A stretch of 64,000 nt of DNA, taken from NCBI GenBank assembly GCA_963771355.1, contig CAVYTA010000006.1:864001-928000 (forward strand), given 5' to 3'. The DNA is from an uncultured Candidatus Rokubacteria bacterium. Lineage in GTDB: Bacteria; Methylomirabilota; Methylomirabilia; Rokubacteriales; CSP1-6. Both the position numbers and the translations under genes were made by a program. Below are positions 26,328 through 37,709 of this stretch, piece by piece; position 1 is the first letter of the stretch, and each line of letters starts with the position of its first letter. The notes under the pieces were generated by a model. It had not been told where the DNA came from and ran no database searches. It worked only from the letters and a program-made list of their open reading frames with translations.

Positions 26328-27644
26328 GTGGAGTCAGCCACGCGTCGGGCTCCGCTCGCCACGCTCCTCCTCCTCTTTGCGTTCTTCGCCGTCGGGGTCG
26401 CTTCGGGCGCCGCGCCCGCCCCGGTGGCGGTGATCGACATCGAGGGCGCCATCACCCCGGTGACGGTGCGCCTGGTCTCCGCCGCGGTGGAGCGCGCTCA
26501 GGCCGAGCGCGCCCAGGCTCTCGTCATCCAGCTCGACACCCCGGGGGGACTCGAGCGCTCCATGCGCTCCATCGTGCAGTCGATCCTCAACTCCGAGGTG
26601 CCGGTGATCGTCTACGTGGCGCCCACGGGTGGGCGGGCCGCGTCCGCGGGGGTGTTCATCACCATGGCCGCGCACGTGGCCGCGATGGCGCCCGCCACCA
26701 ATATCGGCGCGGCGCACCCGGTGGCGGTGGGAGGCGGCGGGCCGGACAAGGAGATGATGAAGAAGATCGAGAACGACGCCGCCGCCTTCGCGCGCACCAT
26801 CGCGGTGGAGCGGGGGCGCAACGCGGAGTGGGCAGAGAAGGCGGTGCGGTCGTCGGTGTCGGTGACCGAGCGCGAGGCGGTGAAGCTCAAGATCGTGGAC
26901 CTGGTGGCCGACAATCTGACGGACCTCCTGGCCAAGGTCGACGGCCGGACCGTGAAGACGGCGAAGGGGACGGTGACGCTCCAGACCAAGGACGCGTCCC
27001 TCAAGAAGATCGAGGTCAAGTTCCGCGACCGGTTCCTCGCGCTGATCTCCGACCCCAATATCGCCTACATCCTCATGATGGTCGGGATGCTGGGCATCTT
27101 CTTCGAGCTCTCCAATCCCGGCGTCATTCTGCCCGGCGTCCTTGGCGGCATCAGCCTCATCCTGGCCTTCTTCGCCTTCCAGAGCCTGCCCATCAACTGG
27201 GCGGGAGTGCTCCTCATCCTCTTCGGCGTGGCCCTGCTCATCGCGGAGATCAAGGTGGTGAGCCATGGCGTCCTCACGATCGGTGGCGTGGTGGCCATGC
27301 TCCTGGGCTCGATGATGCTCTTCGACGCGCCCGAGGCCGGCGGGCTCCGCGTCTCCTGGTTTGTGATCGTGCCCGCGGTGGCCTCCACGGCGGGTCTGGT
27401 GGTGGTCGGCCTCACCTTCGGAATGCGGGCGCTGTACCGGAAGCCCACCACCGGCGAGAGTGGGATGGTCGGGGAGATCGGCGTGGTCAGGAGCCCGCTG
27501 GCCCCGGAAGGCCAGGTGCTGGTGCACGGCGAGCTCTGGCAGGCGATCGCCCAAAACGGGCCGGTGGCGGTCGGCGAGAAGGTCGAGGTGGTCGGGGTGA
27601 ATGGCCTCACCCTCACCGTGGTCAAGGCAGCCGACCGGCGCTGA
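26328..27644 (+). CDS. nfeD: Long-form NfeD membrane-bound serine protease
   Basis: Signal peptide, [22 protein letters not shown] block, C-terminal OB domain (G.V.V.GELW); followed by a slipin gene. Confidence 0.9.
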
Positions 27645-27663
27645 GCGCCGAGAGGAGAAGGAT

Positions 27664-28479
27664 ATGGGCGGCTTCGAGATGAGCATCGGCTTGATCCTGG
27701 TCCTGATTGTCGGCGTCTTCGTGATCGGCTCCTCGGTCCGCATCCTGCGCGAGTACGAGCGGGGAGTGATCTTCCGGTTCGGCCGGCGGGCGAACGCAGT
27801 GTTGAATCCCGGCGGCGACGGCTCGGGGCCGGGACTGGTGCTCCTCTTGCCCTTCGTGGACAAGATGGTCAAGGTGAGCCTCCGCACCATCACCATGGAC
27901 GTGCCCCCCCAGGACGTGATCACGCGCGACAACGTCTCGGTGAAGGTGAACGCGGTGATCTTCTTCCGCGTGCTGGACTCGGCCAAGGCGGTGATCAGCG
28001 TGGAGGACTACCTCTATGCCACCTCGCAGATCGCCCAGACCACGCTACGCAGCGTGCTCGGTCAGCAGGAACTGGATGATCTCCTCTCCTCGCGGGACAA
28101 GATCAACCAGGAGCTGACGCGCATCATCGACGAGCACACCAATCCCTGGGGGATCAAAGTGGCGGCGGTGGAGGTCAAGAACGTGGACCTACCCCAGGAT
28201 ATGCAGCGCGCCATGTCCAAGCAGGCCGAGGCCGAGCGCGAGCGCCGAGCCAAGGTCATCAACGCGGACGGCGAGTTCCAGGCCGCCGCCAAGCTCTCCG
28301 AGGCGGCCGACGTCCTCTCGCGCTTCCCCATCGCCATCCAGCTCCGCTATCTCCAGACCATGCGGGAGATCGCCTCCGAGCGGAACACCACCACCTTCTT
28401 CCCGGTGCCGGTGGATCTCCTGGGCTCGCTCCGGACCGTGCTGGGCACCGCGGACGGCCAGGGCGCCGCCAAGAGCTGA
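27664..28479 (+). CDS. Slipin/stomatin (SPFH) protein
   Basis: [57 protein letters not shown]. Confidence 0.93.
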
Positions 28480-30458: not shown

Positions 30459-30581
30459 TCAGGCGCGCTTGGCGGCGCGGGCCGGCTTGGCCGGACACAT
30501 CTTGTGCAGCCACACCGAACCGAGCTTGACGTGATTGCCATTCCGGCGGATTCGCAGCTTGCACTTCGGACAGGTACCCAT
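30459..30581 (-). CDS. 40-aa basic microprotein with CxxC-x18-HxxC zinc finger
   Basis: MGTCPKCKLRIRRNGNHVKLGSVWLHKMCPAKPARAAKRA; SD AAGGAG 7 nt upstream; GGTG-TATACT -10 element at 30643-30634 (-); occupies an otherwise empty gap. Confidence 0.72.
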   Translation of the reverse strand: MGTCPKCKLRIRRNGNHVKLGSVWLHKMCPAKPARAAKRA

Positions 30582-30658
30582 CAGTATCTCCTTGGCTTGA
30601 AATCGCCGCCGCCGCGGGCGACAGCAAGGAGAGAGTATACACCGACCCGGGGGGATTC

Positions 30659-30991
30659 GTGAGCGCCGACTGCGTATTCTGCCGCATCGTGGTCCGCCAG
30701 ACACCCGCCGATATCGAGTACGAGGACGATGAGGTCCTCGCTTTCAAGGACATCTACCCCAAGGCTCCGCTTCACCTCCTGATCATCCCCAAGCGGCACA
30801 TCGAATCGCTCGCGAGCCTGGACCCCGATGATACCGCCGTGATGGGACGCTGCATCCAGACCGCGCGAATCCTCGGAGCGCGCGCGGGCTATGGTGACCG
30901 CGGCTACCGCGTCTCCTGTAACGTGGGACCCGAGGGCGGCCAGGTCGTCTACCACGTCCACTTCCACTTGACCGCCGGCCGGCGGAAGTGA
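30659..30991 (+). CDS. HIT (histidine triad) nucleotide-binding protein
   Basis: DCVFCRIV, AFKDIYPKAPLHLLIIPKRH, GGQVVYHVHFHL. Confidence 0.93.
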   Translation: MSADCVFCRIVVRQTPADIEYEDDEVLAFKDIYPKAPLHLLIIPKRHIESLASLDPDDTAVMGRCIQTARILGARAGYGDRGYRVSCNVGPEGGQVVYHVHFHLTAGRRK

Positions 30992-31731
30992 TCCGCGTCC
31001 GCGGCCTGCGCAAGCAGTATCCGGGCGGCCCGGTCGCTCTCGACGGCGTCGACCTGGACATCACCGAAGGCGAGCGGGTGGCCCTCATCGGACCGAGTGG
31101 AGCCGGGAAGTCCACGCTCTTGCGCTGCCTGAACGGTTTCGTCCCGCCCACGGACGGCGAGATCCGGGTGGGAGGCGCGAACGTCACGGGCGCCACTGGA
31201 GAGCGCCTCCGGCTGATCCGCGCCGGGATCGGCTTCGTCTTCCAGCAGTTCAACCTGCAGCGCCGCCTCTCCGTGCTCGAGAACGTGCTGATCGGAGGGC
31301 TCGCGCGGGCGCCCCGGCTCCGCTCGCTGCTGGGCCTATTTCCCGTCACTGATACGGTGCGCGCGCGCGCCGCCCTGGACCGGGTGGGGCTCGGCGGGCT
31401 CGACGACCGGCGCGTGGACACGCTGTCCGGAGGGCAACAGCAGCGAGTGGCCATCGCCCGCGTGCTCGTCCAGGAGCCCCGGGTCATCCTGGCTGACGAG
31501 CCCATGGCCAGCCTCGATCCCGCGCTGTCAGAATCAATCCTCGCGCTGCTCCAGCGCATCTCGGACGAGGACGGCATCACGGTGGTGACCTCACTCCATG
31601 TCCTCGATCTCGCGCGCCGGTATAGTCGCCGCGTGATCGGCCTGCGCGGTGGCCGTGTGGCCTATGACGGCTCACCCGAGGACCTCACCGAGGCGGAGGC
31701 GCAACGCATCTTCGCCGCCGCCTCGACCTGA
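30988..31731 (+). CDS. phnC: Phosphonate/phosphite ABC transporter ATPase
   Basis: GPSGAGKSTLLR, FQQFNL, LSGGQQQRVAIAR, LADEPMASLDP, SLH. Confidence 0.88.
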   Translation: MIRVRGLRKQYPGGPVALDGVDLDITEGERVALIGPSGAGKSTLLRCLNGFVPPTDGEIRVGGANVTGATGERLRLIRAGIGFVFQQFNLQRRLSVLENVLIGGLARAPRLRSLLGLFPVTDTVRARAALDRVGLGGLDDRRVDTLSGGQQQRVAIARVLVQEPRVILADEPMASLDPALSESILALLQRISDEDGITVVTSLHVLDLARRYSRRVIGLRGGRVAYDGSPEDLTEAEAQRIFAAAST

Positions 31732-32480
31732 TGCGAGCCTCCCGCTGGGTGGGTTGGGCCGCCATCATCGGACTTTTCCTCTGGTCGGCGGCCGCGACCG
31801 AGCTCTCGGCCGGCCGGCTGATCGAGGGTTCCCCGTACATGCTGGACTTCCTCCGACGCATGGTCCCACCGGACTTTTCCGTCCTCCGTCACGCGCTCAC
31901 CGGCGCGATGCAGACCTTCCAGATCGCGGTGGTGGGCACCGGGATCGCAGCCCTCCTCGCGTTGCCGATGGGCTTTGCGGCGGCGCGCAATGTCGCTCCC
32001 TCCTGGCTCTTCTATAGTGCCCGCTCCGTGCTGAACGTGTTTCGCGCGATTGACACCCTCGTCTACGCGCTCTTCTTCGTGGCAGCGGTGGGACTGGGGC
32101 CCTTTCCCGGTGTCCTCGCGGTGGTGGCCTATACGGCCACCGTGCTGGCCAAGCTCTATTCGGAAGCGATCGAGGCCATAGACCGGGGACCGGTGGAGGC
32201 GGTGGAAGCGTCCGGGGCCACGCGCCTCCAAGTCCTTCGCTGGGGAGTGCTGCCTCAGCTCGTGCCGCAGTTCCTGTCGTTCACGCTCTACCGCTTCGAG
32301 ACGAACATCCGGGCGGCGGCAATCCTGGGTTTCGTGGGGGCGGGGGGCATCGGCTTCTACATCCAGACCTATCTACGCATGCTCAACTATCCGGCCGCCT
32401 CCACGGTGCTGCTTGTGCTGATCGTCCTCGTCATGGCGGTGGACTTCACGTCTTCACGATTGCGCGCACGTCTCGTCTAG
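31731..32480 (+). CDS. phnE: Phosphonate/phosphite ABC transporter permease
   Basis: GLGPFPGVLA, AKLYSEAIEAID, YRFETNIRAAAILGFVGAGGIG. Confidence 0.9.
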   Translation: MRASRWVGWAAIIGLFLWSAAATELSAGRLIEGSPYMLDFLRRMVPPDFSVLRHALTGAMQTFQIAVVGTGIAALLALPMGFAAARNVAPSWLFYSARSVLNVFRAIDTLVYALFFVAAVGLGPFPGVLAVVAYTATVLAKLYSEAIEAIDRGPVEAVEASGATRLQVLRWGVLPQLVPQFLSFTLYRFETNIRAAAILGFVGAGGIGFYIQTYLRMLNYPAASTVLLVLIVLVMAVDFTSSRLRARLV

Positions 32481-32481
32481 C

Positions 32482-32518
32482 AAAACAAAAGGCTCCAGGG
32501 GGTTGCCCCCCTGGAGCC
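32482..32518 (-). terminator. Intrinsic terminator of the repeat-protein gene
   Basis: 12-bp stem GGCTCCAGGGGG/CCCCCTGGAGCC, GCAA loop on the - strand, followed by TTTTGTTTT on the - strand. Confidence 0.85.
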
Positions 32519-32543
32519 CGGTGGATCAGGTTAATTCAGCGAC

Positions 32544-33967
32544 TTACTTGATCAGGTCCATGGCGGCCCGGGCCTTCTGGGACGCCAGGCTAGAATTACC
32601 GGCCTTGCACGCCGCCTCGGCCTCACGAACCAGCGAGGTGGCACGGGAGAAGTCGGCGCGAGGAGCGTTGCCGTCCTGCCCGCGCGGCGCGTTGACATCC
32701 TGCGTCCGGGGCGCGTTGACATCCTGCGTCCGCGGCGCGTTCACGTCCTGCGTCCGGGGCGCGTTGACATCCTGCGTCCGGGGCGCATTGACATCCTGCG
32801 TCCGCGGCGCGTTCACGTCCTGCGTCCGGGGCGCGTTGACATCCTGCGTCCGCGGCGCGTTGACATCCTGCGTCCGCGGCGCGTTGACATCCTGCGTCCG
32901 CGGCGCGTTCACATCCTGGGTGCGAGGAGCCTGCACGCCCTGGCTACGCGGGGCGTTCACGTCCTGGGTCCGGGGCGCGTTCACGTCCTGGGTCCGAGGA
33001 GCCTGCACGCCCTGGCTGCGGGGCGCGTTCACATCCTGGGTCCGGGGCGCGTTCACATCCTGGGTCCGGGGCGCGTTCACATCCTGGGTCCGGGGCGCGT
33101 TCACATCCTGGGTCCGGGGCGCGTTCACATCCTGGGTCCGGGGCGCGTTCACATCCTGGGTCCGAGGAGCCTGCACGCCCTGGCTGCGGGGCGCGTTCAC
33201 ATCCTGGGTCCGGGGCGCGTTCACATCCTGGGTCCGGGGCGCGTTCACATCCTGGGTCCGGGGCGCGTTCACATCCTGGGTCCGAGGAGCCTGCACGCCC
33301 TGGCTGCGGGGCGCGTTCACATCCTGGGTCCGGGGCGCGTTCACATCCTGGGTCCGGGGCGCGTTCACATCCTGGGTCCGGGGCGCGTTCACGTCCTGGC
33401 GTCCGGGGCGCGTTCACATCCTGGGTCCGGGGCGCGTTCACGTCCTGGGTCCGGGGCGCGTTCACATCCTGGCGTCCGGGGCGCGTTCACATCCTGGGTC
33501 CGGGGCGCGTTCACATCCTGGGTCCGGGGCGCGTTCACATCCTGGGTCCGGGGCGCGTTCACGTCCTGGGTCCGGGGCGCGTTGACATCCTGCGTCCGGG
33601 GCGCATTCACATCCTGGGTACGAGGAGCCTGCACGCCCTGGCTACGCGGCGCGTTCACATCCTGGGTCCGGGGCGCGTTCACGTCCTGCGTCCGCGCACC
33701 CGCCAGCGAACGGGGCGCCTGCACTTCCTGGGGCCCCTGAGCCCGCGGGGCGTTGACATCTTGCGTCCGCGGCGCGTTGACATCCTGCGTCCGGGCGCCG
33801 GCCAGCGACCGAGGCGCATTGACATCTTGCGTGCGCGCCTGACGCTGCTCGATCATCGACTTCGCCTGGGCCACTTCGGGCGGGCAGCTGGTCTGCGCCG
33901 AGCTGACCGACGCCGACAGCGACGCCATGAACACCACACTGGTCACCGTCGCCAAAACCTTCTTCAT
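32544..33967 (-). CDS. Secreted tandem-repeat protein (about 473 aa once two apparent +1 insertions at about 33400 and 33472 are removed)
   Basis: SD GAAAGGA; signal peptide MKKVLATVTSVVFMASLSASVSSA; QTSCPPEVAQAKSMIEQRQAR; repeat block; unique tail ADFSRATSLVREAEAACKAGNSSLASQKARAAMDLIK. The span of 1424 nt minus 2 equals 474 codons. Confidence 0.8.
32658..33832 (-). repeat. Coding tandem repeat, 24-nt unit: 47 APR-ending units (40 TQDVNAPR, 5 SQGVQAPR, 1 AQGPQEVQAPR, 1 GQDGNAPR) plus 2 SLAGAR
   Basis: Head-to-tail ACATCCTGGGTCCGGGGCGCGTTC-type units on the + strand with no spacers; counted from the translations. Confidence 0.95.
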
Positions 33968-34086
33968 GAGTTCCGTCCTTTCAAACTTGGTTAACTGCCA
34001 CCAACCTGCTTACACCGCCGCCGCTTCGAATCATTGGTCAGAGGCGATCCGCCGCTTGTCCGGCCCCAACCTCGCAAAGGAGACAA

Positions 34087-34102
34087 TGCAGATGCGGTGC
34101 CA
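34087..34102 (-). promoter_or_regulatory. Sigma54 (-24/-12) promoter for the repeat-protein gene
   Basis: The - strand reads TGGCACCGCATCTGCA (TGGCAC; GG-N10-GC), about 120 nt upstream of the ATG. Confidence 0.7.
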
Positions 34103-34130: not shown

Positions 34131-34143
34131 GATCAACGGTTTA
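34131..34143. promoter_or_regulatory. Putative IHF site upstream of the sigma54 promoter
   Basis: GATCAACGGTTTA versus consensus WATCAANNNNTTR (one mismatch), about 30-40 nt upstream of the -24 box. Confidence 0.5.
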
Positions 34144-34272
34144 CCGCCGGCCTGAGTCCTACGCCCCCTAAGCCGAGGGGCGTTCTGCCCGACCATCCCG
34201 CAGGCCCCCATTGCCAATCTGCCGCGGAGCTGGGGCGACGCTGCGCTCCTCCTGACTCGTGAATCCGGATAC

Positions 34273-34301
34273 TTGTGATGATACACGTGGGCTGCTAGGC
34301 T
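34273..34301 (+). promoter_or_regulatory. Sigma70-type promoter for the M16 peptidase genes
   Basis: TTGTGA, 17 nt, TAGGCT with extended TG; ATG 34310 lies 8 nt downstream. Confidence 0.5.
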
Positions 34302-34309
34302 TCACCACC

Positions 34310-35656
34310 ATGACCGGTGCCCAGATGGTAAAACCCTACTCCGTGGTGGCGATGATGAGCATCCTCTTCCTGGGCGCCTGCGCGGCTACCTCCCAGCTGC
34401 CGGCCAAGTCCGCGTCCAGTGGCCCCTCCCGCGAGGTCCTGGCCAATGGACTCCGCCTCATCATCCAGGAGCATCCCGCCAGCGACGTGGTCGCCCTTCA
34501 CGTCTGGGTGGGCGTCGGCGGCCGGGACGAGGCGCCCGCCGAGCGTGGATTCTCACACTTCGCGGAACACATGCTCTTCAAGGGCACCGAGCATCGCGCC
34601 CCCGGATTCGTGGACCGCGAGATCGAGACGGTGGGGGGCCGGACCAATGCGGGGACGTCGTGGGACTACACCTTCTACTACATCCTCCTGCCGGCCTCCC
34701 AGACGGTGAAGGGCATCGAGATCCTGTCCGACATGATCTTCAACTCGGTGTTCGACGAGCGCGAGCTTGCCCGCGAACGGGAGGTGGTATTCGAGGAGAT
34801 CCGACTCGGCGAGGACAACCCGCGCAGCTACCTGGGACGCCGGCTGTACGAGCTGACCTTTCGAGGAGACACTTACGGCTATCCCGTACTGGGCGACCGG
34901 GACATCCTGCGAGCGTCCAGCCGGGAGACGCTCCGAGGCTTCTATGCGCGGCACTACGTCCCGGACAACCTGACGCTGGTGGTGGTGGGCGCCGTCCGGC
35001 CGGACGAGGTTCGCGCCGCGGTGGCCCGCACATTCGCGGCTCCTCCCGCGCGGGGTTACCGCCGTCCGGTCCCGCCCGCGCCCCGCCCGCTTGACGAGAG
35101 CCACCGCGAGGTGCGCCCGCGCCCGGAGCGGCAGAGCTCGATCGGACTGGCCTGGCTCGCGCCGCCCCTCGGTGAGCGCGACATGTTCGCCACGGATCTA
35201 CTGGCGCATATACTCGGCGGCTCCGCGTCGTCCCGCCTCAACCAGACCCTGCGCGAGCGGCTGCGCCTCGTCACCTCGATCAGGGCCAGCTACTCGGCCC
35301 TGCAGGCGACGGGCGTGCTCAGCATTACCGCGCTCTGCGAGCCCGACGACGTCGAGAAGGTGGAGGCCACGGTGCTGGCCGAGGTGAAGCGGATCCAGGA
35401 CGAAGGGGTGAGCCAGACCGAGCGCGACCGCGCGGTCACCGCGGCGGAGAGCCAGCACGCCTTCGCGACCGAGACCGCCGAGGGGCGCGCCTATGCCTAT
35501 GGCTTCGCCGAGACGCTCTGGACGCTCGAGGGGGAGCTCCGCTACCTGGAAGGGATCCGCGGGGTGACGCCCGAGCAGATCCGGGGGGCGGCCCGCCGAT
35601 ATCTGAGCGCTGCGAATTCGCGGCTCATCCTGAACCCCCGGGACCGCGCGCGATGA
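34310..35656 (+). CDS. M16B zinc peptidase, catalytic subunit, predicted lipoprotein
   Basis: Lipobox-like SILFLGAC; HFAEHMLFKGT (HxxEH); NAGTSWDYTFY; EREVVFEE; HYVPDN. Start ATG 34310 or 34325. Confidence 0.9.
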   Translation: MTGAQMVKPYSVVAMMSILFLGACAATSQLPAKSASSGPSREVLANGLRLIIQEHPASDVVALHVWVGVGGRDEAPAERGFSHFAEHMLFKGTEHRAPGFVDREIETVGGRTNAGTSWDYTFYYILLPASQTVKGIEILSDMIFNSVFDERELAREREVVFEEIRLGEDNPRSYLGRRLYELTFRGDTYGYPVLGDRDILRASSRETLRGFYARHYVPDNLTLVVVGAVRPDEVRAAVARTFAAPPARGYRRPVPPAPRPLDESHREVRPRPERQSSIGLAWLAPPLGERDMFATDLLAHILGGSASSRLNQTLRERLRLVTSIRASYSALQATGVLSITALCEPDDVEKVEATVLAEVKRIQDEGVSQTERDRAVTAAESQHAFATETAEGRAYAYGFAETLWTLEGELRYLEGIRGVTPEQIRGAARRYLSAANSRLILNPRDRAR

Positions 35657-36954
35657 TCAGGCACCTCGTGGCCGGCGCGCTCCTCGCCGGTCTCGCCTTC
35701 GCCGGCCCGGCGCGCGCGGCCGAGCCCGTGGTCTTGCGCGAGCGACTTCCCGGTGGGCTCACCGTGCTCGTGCGCGAGAATCCGAGCGCGCCGGTGGTGG
35801 CGGTGTCCGTGCTCGTCCGCGTGGGCTCGCGGTGGGAGCGCGAGGACAATGCCGGCATCACCAATCTCATGCAGCAGGTGCTGGTGAAGGGCACGCGGAG
35901 CCGCTCGGCGCTGGCCATCGCGGAGGCGGCCGAGGACGTCGGAGGGGGCGTCAGCGCGTCGGGCGACACGGACGCTTCCGAGATCCGTGGCAGCGGGCTC
36001 TCGCGGCACTGGCCGCGGGTGCTCGAGCTGATCGCCGATGTAACCCTGCGCCCGTCGCTGCCGGACCCGGAGATCGACGCCGAGCGCCGGGTGGTGCAGA
36101 GCGCGCTGCGAAGCCGCGGGGATCAACCCTTCCAGCGTGCCTACGACACGCTCATGGAGCGCGTGTATGGCCCGCACCCGTACTCGCGGCCGGTGCTGGG
36201 CCGGACGGCCGTGGTGGCGCGCCTGGACCGGGCCGCGCTGCTCGAGCACTATCGCACCTTCTACCGGGCGGGACGGACCGTCGTGTCCGTGAGCGGAGAC
36301 GTCTCCGCGCCCGAAGTGGCGGCGGAGGTGCGACGCCTCTTCGCGGAGATGCCCCCGGGCGAGGGAAACGTGAGCGAGCCGTCGGTCACCCCCGTCACGA
36401 CCCCCGGGCGCGTGCGGGTGGCCCATCCCGCCGCCCAGGCCCAGGTGCTTGCGGGGACGGTCGGGCCCGCCATCGCGCACCGAGACTATGCGGCGGTGAA
36501 AGTGCTGAGCGTCGCGCTCGGCGGCGGCATGGCGGGGCGTCTCTTCACCGAGCTTCGGGACAAGCAGGGCCTGGCCTACTCCACCGGCGCGATCAACCCA
36601 TCCCGCGTCCATCCCTCGGTCCTCATCGCCTACCTGGGCACCGCCCCCGACAATGCCGAGCGGGCCGAGGACGGCATGCGGCGCGAGCTCGAGCGGATCG
36701 CCCGCGAGGCGGTAAGTCCCGACGAGCTCGCGCGGGCGAAGGCGTACCTTCTGGGACAGTTTGTCCTCGACCGCCGGACCAACGCGCGGCTGGCCTGGTA
36801 TCAGGCATATTTCGAATCGGCGGGAGTGGGCCACGATTTCGCCCGTCGCTACATCCGGGCGGTGGAGTCGGTCACCGTGGAAGACCTGCTGCGCGTGGCG
36901 CAAGCCTACCTGGCCGCCCCCGCATTTGTGAGCTTGCAGCCGCCCGCCCGTTAG
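35653..36954 (+). CDS. M16B peptidase, non-catalytic partner subunit, exported
   Basis: Signal peptide ...AGPARA; HxxEH replaced by NLMQQ; carries the R/Y motif RLFTELRDKQGLAYS; ATGA overlap with the upstream gene. Confidence 0.88.
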   Translation: MIRHLVAGALLAGLAFAGPARAAEPVVLRERLPGGLTVLVRENPSAPVVAVSVLVRVGSRWEREDNAGITNLMQQVLVKGTRSRSALAIAEAAEDVGGGVSASGDTDASEIRGSGLSRHWPRVLELIADVTLRPSLPDPEIDAERRVVQSALRSRGDQPFQRAYDTLMERVYGPHPYSRPVLGRTAVVARLDRAALLEHYRTFYRAGRTVVSVSGDVSAPEVAAEVRRLFAEMPPGEGNVSEPSVTPVTTPGRVRVAHPAAQAQVLAGTVGPAIAHRDYAAVKVLSVALGGGMAGRLFTELRDKQGLAYSTGAINPSRVHPSVLIAYLGTAPDNAERAEDGMRRELERIAREAVSPDELARAKAYLLGQFVLDRRTNARLAWYQAYFESAGVGHDFARRYIRAVESVTVEDLLRVAQAYLAAPAFVSLQPPAR

Positions 36955-36983
36955 GGCACTGCGCCACCGGCCGATCAACCGGC

Positions 36984-37709
36984 ATGTTTCCGCTCAAGGA
37001 CGACGTTCCCGGCCGCACCACGCCCTTCATCACCGTCGGCCTCATCGCGATCAACGTCGTCGTGTTCCTCTACCAGATCTCACTCGGTATCGAGGGCTCG
37101 ACGCCCGGCGGCGCTGTTCGCGAGCTCATCCTGGAGTTCGGCCTCACCCCCTGCCGGCTCACCGGTCACTGCGTCGATGCACCGCCGGGCCTGCCGTCGC
37201 CCTGGGTCACCATGTTCACGTCCATGTTCCTCCACGGCGGCCTCTTCCACGTCGGCGGGAACATGCTGTACCTGTGGATCTTCGGCGACAATGTCGAGGA
37301 TACGCTGGGCCACGGCCGCTTCCTGATCTTCTATCTGCTCAGCGGCGTGGCCGCCGCGCTCGTACAGACGATGGTGAGTCCGGCCTCCGCGATCCCGATG
37401 CTGGGGGCGAGTGGGGCGGTCTCGGGCGTGCTCGGCGCTTACCTGTTGCTCTTCCCGCACGCCCGGGTGCTCACCCTGCTTATCTTCGGGTTCTTCTTCC
37501 GCATGGTCCATATTCCGGCCGTCGTCGTGCTCGGCTTCTGGATCGTCGTGCAGGCCGTGAACGGCTTCTTGACCGTCACCGTCACCGCCGTCCGCGGCGA
37601 GTCCGCCGGGGGCGGGGTGGCGTGGTTCGCCCATATCGGCGGCTTCGTGGCCGGCATGGGCCTTCTTTTCGTGTTCCGCTCGCGGCGCGACCCGCGCGAA
37701 CCCTACTAG
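36984..37709 (+). CDS. Rhomboid intramembrane serine protease
   Basis: MFPLKDD, TSMFLHGG..HVGGNMLYLWIFGDNVED, GASGAVSG, VAWFAHIGGF. Confidence 0.93.
   Translation: MFPLKDDVPGRTTPFITVGLIAINVVVFLYQISLGIEGSTPGGAVRELILEFGLTPCRLTGHCVDAPPGLPSPWVTMFTSMFLHGGLFHVGGNMLYLWIFGDNVEDTLGHGRFLIFYLLSGVAAALVQTMVSPASAIPMLGASGAVSGVLGAYLLLFPHARVLTLLIFGFFFRMVHIPAVVVLGFWIVVQAVNGFLTVTVTAVRGESAGGGVAWFAHIGGFVAGMGLLFVFRSRRDPREPY

Follow-up and report, generated by a model that had tools for sequence, protein, structure and literature searches.

A putatively sigma-54-driven, likely exported repeat protein of Rokubacteria: a predicted three-helix bundle around a long loop, and its possible protease partner

What kind of protein places about 390 residues of one repeated octapeptide between two very short ends? 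This question is raised by a gene at positions 33967-32544 (minus strand, 1424 nt as stored) of a 64,000-nt stretch of DNA from an uncultured Candidatus Rokubacteria bacterium (assembly GCA_963771355.1, contig CAVYTA010000006.1, positions 864,001 to 928,000). This whole stretch is called the window, and positions without a prefix are window coordinates. We rate the gene product as a member of an undescribed family, a variant of small exported helical accessory proteins. The reading we favor, at a probability of roughly 0.4, is that of an inducible envelope accessory protein whose closed loop would act as a multivalent substrate or bait for an HtrA-like protease.

The gene begins with a Sec-type signal peptide of 24 residues ending in VSSA (33896..33967, minus strand like all parts of the gene; judged by eye), with no lipobox ahead of the first Cys, and a basic-hydrophobic-AxA leader is present in 52/52 rows of our alignment of the family (A5). 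The mature N-terminal segment, QTSC...QAR (33833..33895), comprises 21 residues that form helix 1 of the predicted bundle and include one sole Cys (33886-33884). It is followed by the repeat array (32658..33832; 1175 nt, about 391 residues), made of 47 units [TSG]-Q-[DG]-V-[NQ]-A-P-R and two SLAGAR spacers, which is predicted to be a disordered loop between helices 1 and 2. The C-terminal helical hairpin, helices 2 and 3 with the stop codon (32544..32657), contributes 37 residues, ADFS...LIK (32657-32547), and the second Cys (32609-32607). An earlier reading made from the sequence only (hereafter the sequence-only reading) had described two ends of 21 and 37 residues with one Cys each around a repeat insert of about 390 residues, and these are present as described.

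Its single mature protein holds in anatomy and fails as a single open reading frame (ORF), as two 25-nt units each carry one extra base (within 33468..33477 and 33395..33404), likely an assembly error, and break the frame. Thus, the start codon opens a 192-aa ORF that runs out of frame near residue 165, and the second Cys is found in a separate 282-aa ORF; the 473-aa protein is real only if both extra bases are errors. An intact relative, L003 (262 aa), has ends nearly identical to those of the window's copy. Regarding the array itself, Tandem Repeats Finder (TRF) gave a period of 24 with 42.9 copies and scores of 996-1447, far above chance. The 13 distinct 24-mers coding for QDVNAPRx vary solely at six third-codon positions and in the last codon; the repeat frame thus yields 3 peptides and no stop, compared with 6-13 peptides in the other five frames. 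Because the variation is located at these positions, the array is under protein-level constraint in the repeat frame. A 360-aa antisense ORF (32503-33585) was rejected as a shadow of that frame.

To obtain structural insight, AlphaFold models of two relatives were considered. The one-unit homolog L046, modeled with a 52-row alignment, showed helices at residues 31-45, 52-70 and 74-89, with a mean predicted local distance difference test (pLDDT) of 72 and a predicted template modeling score (pTM) of 0.54. L003 showed helices at 30-47, 223-243 and 247-261 with a pLDDT of about 87-94 (90 in residues 31-40), while its repeats were modeled as coil at about 40-49. Solved three-helix bundles align to the L003 model from residues 25-27 to 262, e.g. 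over 59 residues at 2.2 Å; since this alignment spans both ends, the model docks them across 213 residues. On the evidence of these single-chain models without controls, it is very likely that the first helix and the last two helices form one three-helix bundle of about 60 residues. Since the first Cys stands at the beginning of helix 1 and the second at the close of helix 2, both would come to lie at one end of an up-down-up bundle, opposite the loop. In exported proteins, a pair of Cys is normally oxidised, and we infer that this pair probably forms a disulfide. Of the disulfide-closed helical bundle in the sequence-only reading, the L046 and L003 models therefore support the co-folded bundle, the disulfide itself being inferred. 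The flanks did not match separate known domains above cut-off. Foldseek searches with the bundle models gave no match at E <= 0.001, and the Atlas structure rows for L003 stayed at TM <= 0.33. In a further fold search the best Z was 9.8, with 8.2 for DUF4398, 6.5 for LanD and 6.5 for SmbP, all within the helical-bundle background, as the tool sets the meaningful level for helical bundles at a Z of about 13.

The family is widespread in the window's lineage. The last 60 residues of the window's copy matched 22/24 genomes of its own family and 0/16 of other families. A profile of short-loop members, run over 200 genomes of the phylum, matched 120/126 genomes of the window's family (f1), 14/16 of its sister family f4, 6/16 of f7 and 1/1 of f9, and none in eight other families; the proteins are therefore near-universal in f1, the largest sampled Rokubacteria family. 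Among 19 GTDB matches, 14 are labeled Rokubacteria or Methylomirabilia, four are labeled otherwise, and one (L050, Alphaproteobacteria) is a chance match within an unrelated ORF. The four others (L032, L045, L046 and L047) carry the repeat gene under the labels Nitrosocosmicus, Dormiibacterota, Deferrimicrobiaceae and Eisenbacteria; these are probably submitter mislabels, and three of the four have Rokubacteria-type neighbours.

For the wider search, a profile with the repeats included scored 7995 candidates, of which 2354 clusters reached E <= 0.001; the best 120 of these were examined. An exhaustive search with the profile of L046, a natural homolog used in place of joined N- and C-terminal segments, together with 21 C-terminal pieces yielded, after clustering at 50%, 152 representatives. 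Word-index searches with shortened L046 and P0192 returned only 2 fragments and the query itself, and two alignments (A2 and A4) were dropped, as MAFFT had misplaced N-terminal fragments. The first Cys is conserved in 206/210 aligned stretches and the second in 258/266, figures that are partly circular because the matches were collected with Cys-bearing profiles. Between these fixed ends the repeat number ranges from 0 to 47, and the spacing from Cys to Cys is 17-217 residues in the protein set and 421 in one intact genomic member. The repeat-less homologs envisaged by the sequence-only reading thus exist as natural members with 0-1 units, several of them with none (P0161, P0159, P0253, P0260); some one-unit members may be collapsed assemblies, e.g. 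P0135, which has the ends of L041. This series of natural proteins, which starts with the 60-residue bundle alone and ends with that bundle carrying 390 loop residues, offers an example of a domain that tolerates a very large insertion. As side observations, L046 (2483-3064) is extended at its C-terminus by 100 residues, the last of which form a conserved beta-like stretch, FTFTWG, a feature shared with P0127, P0133 and P0155. Tandem paralogs lie 3-4 kb apart on one contig (L012 and L025) and on another (L105 and L103), and some genomes hold 4-7 copies with differing unit sequences.

The repeat unit itself combines constancy and variation. The consensus of 70 distinct dominant units is [GSAT]-Q-[DE]-[VIL]-Q-A-P-R-[SGAT], and the motif that the loop presents in many copies per protein can be written Q-[DE]-[VI]-[QN]-A-P-R-[GSTA]. 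Its C-terminal half stays constant, and lineages differ in the N-terminal half. The most conserved part is A-P-R plus a small residue, G, S, T or A following P-R/K at 91% of 1836 sites. The dominant spacing is 8 in 149/167 members and 7, 9, 10, 11 or 14 in 18/167; unit length ranges from 7 to 14 across members and is mixed within 152/167 of them.

We then considered the genes around the repeat gene. At the main locus TlyA, a rhomboid and a pair of M16 peptidases lie on one side and HIT on the other. Over 73 distinct gene ends, the next recognised gene was an HtrA-like protease in 27, phnE in 17, HIT in 10 and M16 in 1; 15 had other genes and 3 were too short to read. In 26/73 the HtrA-like gene begins no more than about 260 bp downstream, on the same strand, the remaining case being a distant weak match, and a hand comparison of matched rows found the adjacency in 41 genomes of 22 genera. 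This protease has a signal peptide, a DegP/DegQ-like Trypsin_2 domain with intact His/Asp/Ser, a transmembrane (TM) helix and a rhodanese-like tail, with no PDZ match. It is present in 121/126 genomes of f1, 1/1 of f9, in weaker form in 10/16 of f7, and in 0/16 of f4. In the f9 genome, L087, a Cys-type homolog whose repeats read GQNEVS(G)AGRS, lies ahead of a paralog of the HtrA-like protease. Furthermore, in three f1 genomes of three genera, a gene of a repeat-less subfamily with His in place of the second Cys (the His type, described below) ends 15-60 bp before the HtrA-like protease, these three pairs having been picked after the fact by comparing coordinates.

In the window's genome the ortholog of the protease is on another contig (C7:512182-513618, plus strand), and other members of the HtrA-like subfamily are at C6:501581-502980 (plus strand) and L119:7617-9017. 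Six of seven aligned proteases stop right after VAYC[TS]; the copy of the window's genome has the whole rhodanese domain. The L087 homolog (1498-2232) is divergent, with an extra helical insert, and shows no sigma-54 motif in 400 nt upstream.

Regarding expression, the repeat gene shows the sequence features of sigma-54-dependent genes, namely a -24/-12 promoter and upstream activator sites, in a genome with rpoN. The candidate promoter, TGGCAC-N5-CTGC (34088..34102, minus strand), is the only match in the window. The pattern TGGC-N8-TGC occurs at <=500 nt upstream in 56/61 Cys-type genes vs 4/61 on the reverse strand. Two enhancer-like boxes on the minus strand, promoter-proximal GGGCAGAACGCC (34179..34190) and promoter-distal GGCAGATTGGC (34213..34223), lie at about 75-125 nt upstream of the promoter, and their pattern GGGCAGAA recurs in 36/54 upstream regions. 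Between enhancer and promoter, a candidate site at 34132..34143 was read as resembling the consensus of integration host factor (IHF); by eye, many relatives show an AT-rich TAAG...TTGAT at this spacing. A Shine-Dalgarno-like GAAAGGA (33976..33982, minus strand), also read from the sequence, stands 8 nt before the ATG. Directly after the gene there is an intrinsic terminator with a 13-pair stem and a T tail (32490..32519, minus strand), and similar hairpins follow most relatives (by eye).

Besides rpoN, the window's genome has about 24 strong Sigma54_activat matches, and the two boxes with promoter were found in it before the repeat gene only. A wider regulon was rejected, since single-box matches (4) were like the control (5 of 924 sites). 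Rfam found nothing at the locus. Six RNA runs contain part of the stretch, from soil and rhizosphere. In 3 studies, the unique 5' part is covered by RNA contigs showing 0-1 differences. Bins with depth were 6, 14 and 3 of 30 in three RNA runs vs 30/30 in a DNA run; the RNA runs were selected by the repeat gene itself, so these figures indicate presence, not level.

Altogether, these observations can be arranged into a mechanism. A sigma-54 activator dedicated to the gene would induce a stand-alone transcript, and the product would be exported by Sec, with signal cleavage presumably after Ala24. The ends would then fold together as predicted and the Cys pair would oxidise. The resulting loop would present many copies of one linear motif and could engage the HtrA-like protease, an engagement suggested by gene context only. 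Either the protease would be titrated, or the loop would be cut while the disulfide holds two chains together. A pairing with a specific membrane protease would make the function directly testable biochemically.

Several observations weigh against this reading. There is no significant fold match. Other His-type loci had the protease as neighbour in 0/109 cases (0/89 and 0/20), and repeat gene and protease are unlinked in the window's genus and others. By eye, a strong terminator follows the repeat gene even where the protease is next, and L087 has a promoter-like site before the protease; co-transcription is therefore doubtful. HIT, M16, rhomboid and TlyA are syntenic as well, and kin are not independent, so that much of the adjacency may be inherited gene order. 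The family f7 has the weaker protease relative (10/16, E about 1e-100), and the two of its genomes that were examined hold the His type only. Finally, while A-P-R plus a small residue is the best-kept part of the unit, the protease has no Asp at the position six residues before the catalytic Ser (located by trypsin numbering) and should thus cut after Val/Ala, not Arg.

Could the loop simply remain uncut? The same fold would then carry a hydrophilin-like, stress-protective or space-filling polymer of the periplasm or matrix, with the bundle only protecting the ends and the protease neighbour reflecting inherited gene order. The composition fits this idea, as the loop is charge-balanced (net +4 in 247 aa, 23% charged) and almost free of aromatics. 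The coil prediction, a copy number that varies freely from 0 to 47, the gene's own sigma-54-type promoter and terminator, and the separation from the protease in the window's genus are likewise in line with it. Two points are left unexplained by a purely physical role: the A-P-R-small end is kept across lineages despite differing unit length and N-terminal half, and different bundle types are repeatedly paired with one protease subfamily. On balance, we consider an uncut loop somewhat unlikely, though a serious candidate.

A second alternative would make the protein a multi-copy peptide precursor. Here, cleavage after Pro-Arg would free lineage-specific 8-mers that act as signals or become modified small natural products, and the bundle would serve as carrier. 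The sequence-only reading had set its structural proposal against such a precursor; this opposition does not stand, as a disulfide-closed loop can still be cut. The small residue after P-R/K, similar to a thrombin-type site, and a unit whose C-terminal half is fixed while its N-terminal half changes with lineage are what such a precursor would show. Also in its favor are a weak match to the thiovarsolin precursor model (VarA, NF033878) and the M16 pair located upstream in 32/73 gene ends. However, the model reaches only 32.7 and 16.2 bits on the two window pieces and 23.0 on L003, where 35 is the cut-off; two other members do not match at all, and no single stretch passes. Furthermore, YcaO (PF02624) is missing from the 99.8% complete genome of the window, while the control search matched it in 5/14 genomes; TfuA was not separately searched. 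Export would part the repeats from cytoplasmic YcaO-type enzymes, the neighbourhoods scanned hold no tailoring enzymes and no Arg-specific protease was seen nearby. The M16 pair as dedicated processor is weakened, as five genomes have lost it from the locus and relatives at 44-45% are present in f4, where only repeat-less homologs were seen. With zero-unit members existing as well, a precursor is unlikely. Concerning the known system, thiovarsolins are APR tripeptide products of a repeating precursor that require YcaO and TfuA, according to PMC6511847. VarA is thus alike in its repeats with APR motifs, and our protein differs by its signal peptide, its folded two-Cys cap and its up to 47 units.

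The preferred substrate-or-bait reading can be extended to a bait-loop or proinsulin-like system, in which the protease would cut the loop, free a burst of lineage-specific octapeptides and leave a two-chain three-helix bundle. The sigma-54-induced, exported and disulfide-closed ring would carry up to about 47 copies of the protease motif, and the cutter would be the dedicated membrane-spanning HtrA-like protease with its cytoplasmic rhodanese-like tail. Its ancestor would have been a metal-type bundle of the Cys-His-His kind, in which a His changed to Cys and a single loop motif was duplicated in a runaway manner. Such a system could act as a peptide-signal amplifier in a widespread uncultured soil lineage, but we regard this extension as quite unlikely.

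Another question is whether the window's allele is truly frameshifted, either as a pseudogene or as a phase-variable OFF state, with a 192-aa product lacking the second Cys. Both extra bases are indeed in the stored sequence, and all 7 frameshifted genes that we counted have arrays >1000 nt, where slippage or recombination could be real. Nevertheless, frameshifts were confined to genomes of <=40 contigs, which we labeled long-read-type: 7/14 of their genes vs 0/45 from other assemblies. This count covers genes that retain both ends and contain no Ns, a condition that excluded three genes, and array length and assembly type are confounded in it, as short-read assemblies do not span the longest arrays. 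Each extra base lies at a place where two unit variants differ (..ACC/..ACG read as ACGC), which fits a merged consensus. In addition, the neighbouring genes are unbroken and the unit variation is synonymous. RNA contigs over the region have no indel row, which is uninformative inside a repeat. Thus, the two extra bases are probably long-read assembly errors and the window's copy is probably intact in the organism; a genuine frameshift seems quite improbable.

The repeat-less His-type homologs bear on the role of the two Cys. Repeat-less proteins of 78-99 aa account for the examined hits in f4 and f7 and for one of the two in f9; their helix 1 contains a Cys, and H-x4-H stands at the site of the repeat family's second Cys. 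All 6 f4 members examined are of this type. In an hhalign comparison of A5 with the His-type alignment A8, the match was 96.4% (E 1.4e-9) over the C-terminal 38 columns only, with a His at the second-Cys site. The short-loop alignment against the His type gave 98.5% over 101 columns, with one sequence common to both sides. Cys, His and His are invariant in 10/10 sequences of A8, and H-x-x-G-x-H is present in 42/52 distinct metagenome proteins. The two types are coexisting paralogs, since the His-type profile matches 60/61 f1 genomes (19 of 20 loci read were His-type) and three such genes are in the window's genome (C7:426679-426957, plus; C6:1042172-1042429, minus; C4:15740-16144, plus). The sigma-54 motif is mostly absent from the His type (1/7, inside a coding region, and 4/52). 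As a side observation, these small exported Cys...His...His paralogs constitute an unnamed, candidate metal-binding family. The C6 copy precedes a gene with a leucyl-tRNA synthetase-like start (by eye). In f4 (L110, L111, L112, L117) the His-type gene is divergent before nuoA-D, and the nuo cluster holds a double NIPSNAP gene.

Given these homologs, the two Cys might serve in metal binding or redox chemistry and not form a structural disulfide. The Cys-His-His proteins would then bind metal; for the Cys-Cys form the task would be Cu(I) binding or redox sensing, and the loop would be an appendage. The invariant ligands of the His type and a weak likeness in sequence and fold to SmbP, a small helical metal-binding protein of Nitrosomonas (PDB 3U8V; E 0.71-0.87, Z 6.5), point in this direction. 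Yet the SmbP scores are not significant, and the second His is lost in the Cys type, which has Met, Thr or Ser there; the His-type homologs are the closer analogue, the repeat form having lost the His ligands. Moreover, no metal-handling genes were found among 92 neighbour proteins scanned, and Cys pairs of exported proteins are normally oxidised. We hold a metal or redox site to be decidedly unlikely.

The weakest alternative, a beta-solenoid, triple beta-helix or amyloid-like matrix fibre, is highly improbable: it draws on the strict 8-residue period of most members and on the Pfam family Gp5_trimer_C (PF22178), which scores 68.8 bits on the 282-aa piece and 28.2 on the 192-aa piece at a cut-off of 30.9 and matches 29/52 members at E <= 0.5, but the L003 monomer model has no strands, Pro recurs every eighth residue without aromatics, the variable unit length would break a fixed beta register, and no phage or secretion-spike genes are nearby. 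Of the disordered or beta-like repeat in the sequence-only reading, it is hence the disordered version that the coil model favors. The Gp5_trimer_C score is probably driven by the 8-residue period; no baseplate or spike genes were among the neighbours scanned (phnCE, HIT, M16, rhomboid, HtrA-like), and the repeat protein has its signal peptide and helical ends where spike domains would stand. Matches to Peptidase_M23, Cornifin, STY0301, TepP and Srp19 were rejected as sub-threshold or compositional. The gene is therefore easily mis-annotated, as its repeats yield false Gp5/M23 labels and frameshifted or collapsed assemblies.

Among known proteins, the closest working comparison for the preferred accessory-protein reading is with the small exported helical proteins CpxP, Spy and ZraP, of which ZraP is sigma-54 driven. 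The repeat protein is different in that it has no LTXXQ motif, and a long tandem loop closed by a Cys pair is in turn absent from CpxP, Spy and ZraP. There is also no sensor kinase gene beside the repeat gene. No Pfam family of the CpxP/Spy/ZraP type was among the matches of 52 and 18 members, and 1/52 members hits the Spy model NF007769 at E 0.077, not above the cut-off. The proposed role would be like that of CpxP towards DegP, where an accessory protein of the periplasm is strongly induced and is consumed by its protease (PMC6737893).

In structural terms, DUF4398 (PF14346; PA2901, PDB 4FM3) is a three-helix bundle that aligns with Z values of 8.2 and 7.6, below the level of about 13, the former over 63 residues at an rmsd of 2.2 Å and 21% identity. 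The one-unit homolog matches its Pfam model at E 0.025. The best score is 15.5 bits vs a cut-off of 27.9, 2/52 members match at E <= 0.5, and no DUF4398 member is over the cut-off in the window's genome; the repeat protein is possibly a remote relative. LanD (Methylorubrum extorquens, PDB 9C8W) aligns over 59 residues with Z 6.5-6.6. In PMC11551332 it is a compact three-helix bundle with one disulfide between helices 1 and 3 and a carboxylate metal site where helix 2 ends. Our protein differs in that its two Cys are at the beginning of helix 1 and the close of helix 2 and that it has no carboxylate cluster; identity is 15-17% at a Z within background, and LanD has no repeat loop.

Beyond compositional hits, no Pfam or NCBIfam family fits. 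An Atlas feature search with L046 gave 29 unnamed clusters of 84-91 aa and one with PF27144 in 15% of members, a label on which nothing was found in the literature. No description of the repeat family was found either, in a search outside of which fell subscription papers and supplements, including proteomics tables; the accessible part of PMC5103831 mentions no such protein.

Several neighbouring features complete the picture of the locus. The divergent M16 peptidase pair (34259..36954, plus strand) is given as context only. On the other side, convergent phnC-phnE (30988..32480, plus strand) occupy the position that the protease has in many relatives. They stand directly behind HIT, with no phnD between 29225 and 32480, and replace the protease gene in the window's genus and some others. 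The regions 26331-28479 and 34259-37709 are rich in envelope proteolysis genes, namely the M16 pair, rhomboid, and NfeD-like and SPFH-like genes (the last two by eye). Finally, a small ORF (30459-30704, minus strand) ends in about 40 residues (MGTCPKC...HKMCP) that are 67-89% conserved beside HIT in many relatives.

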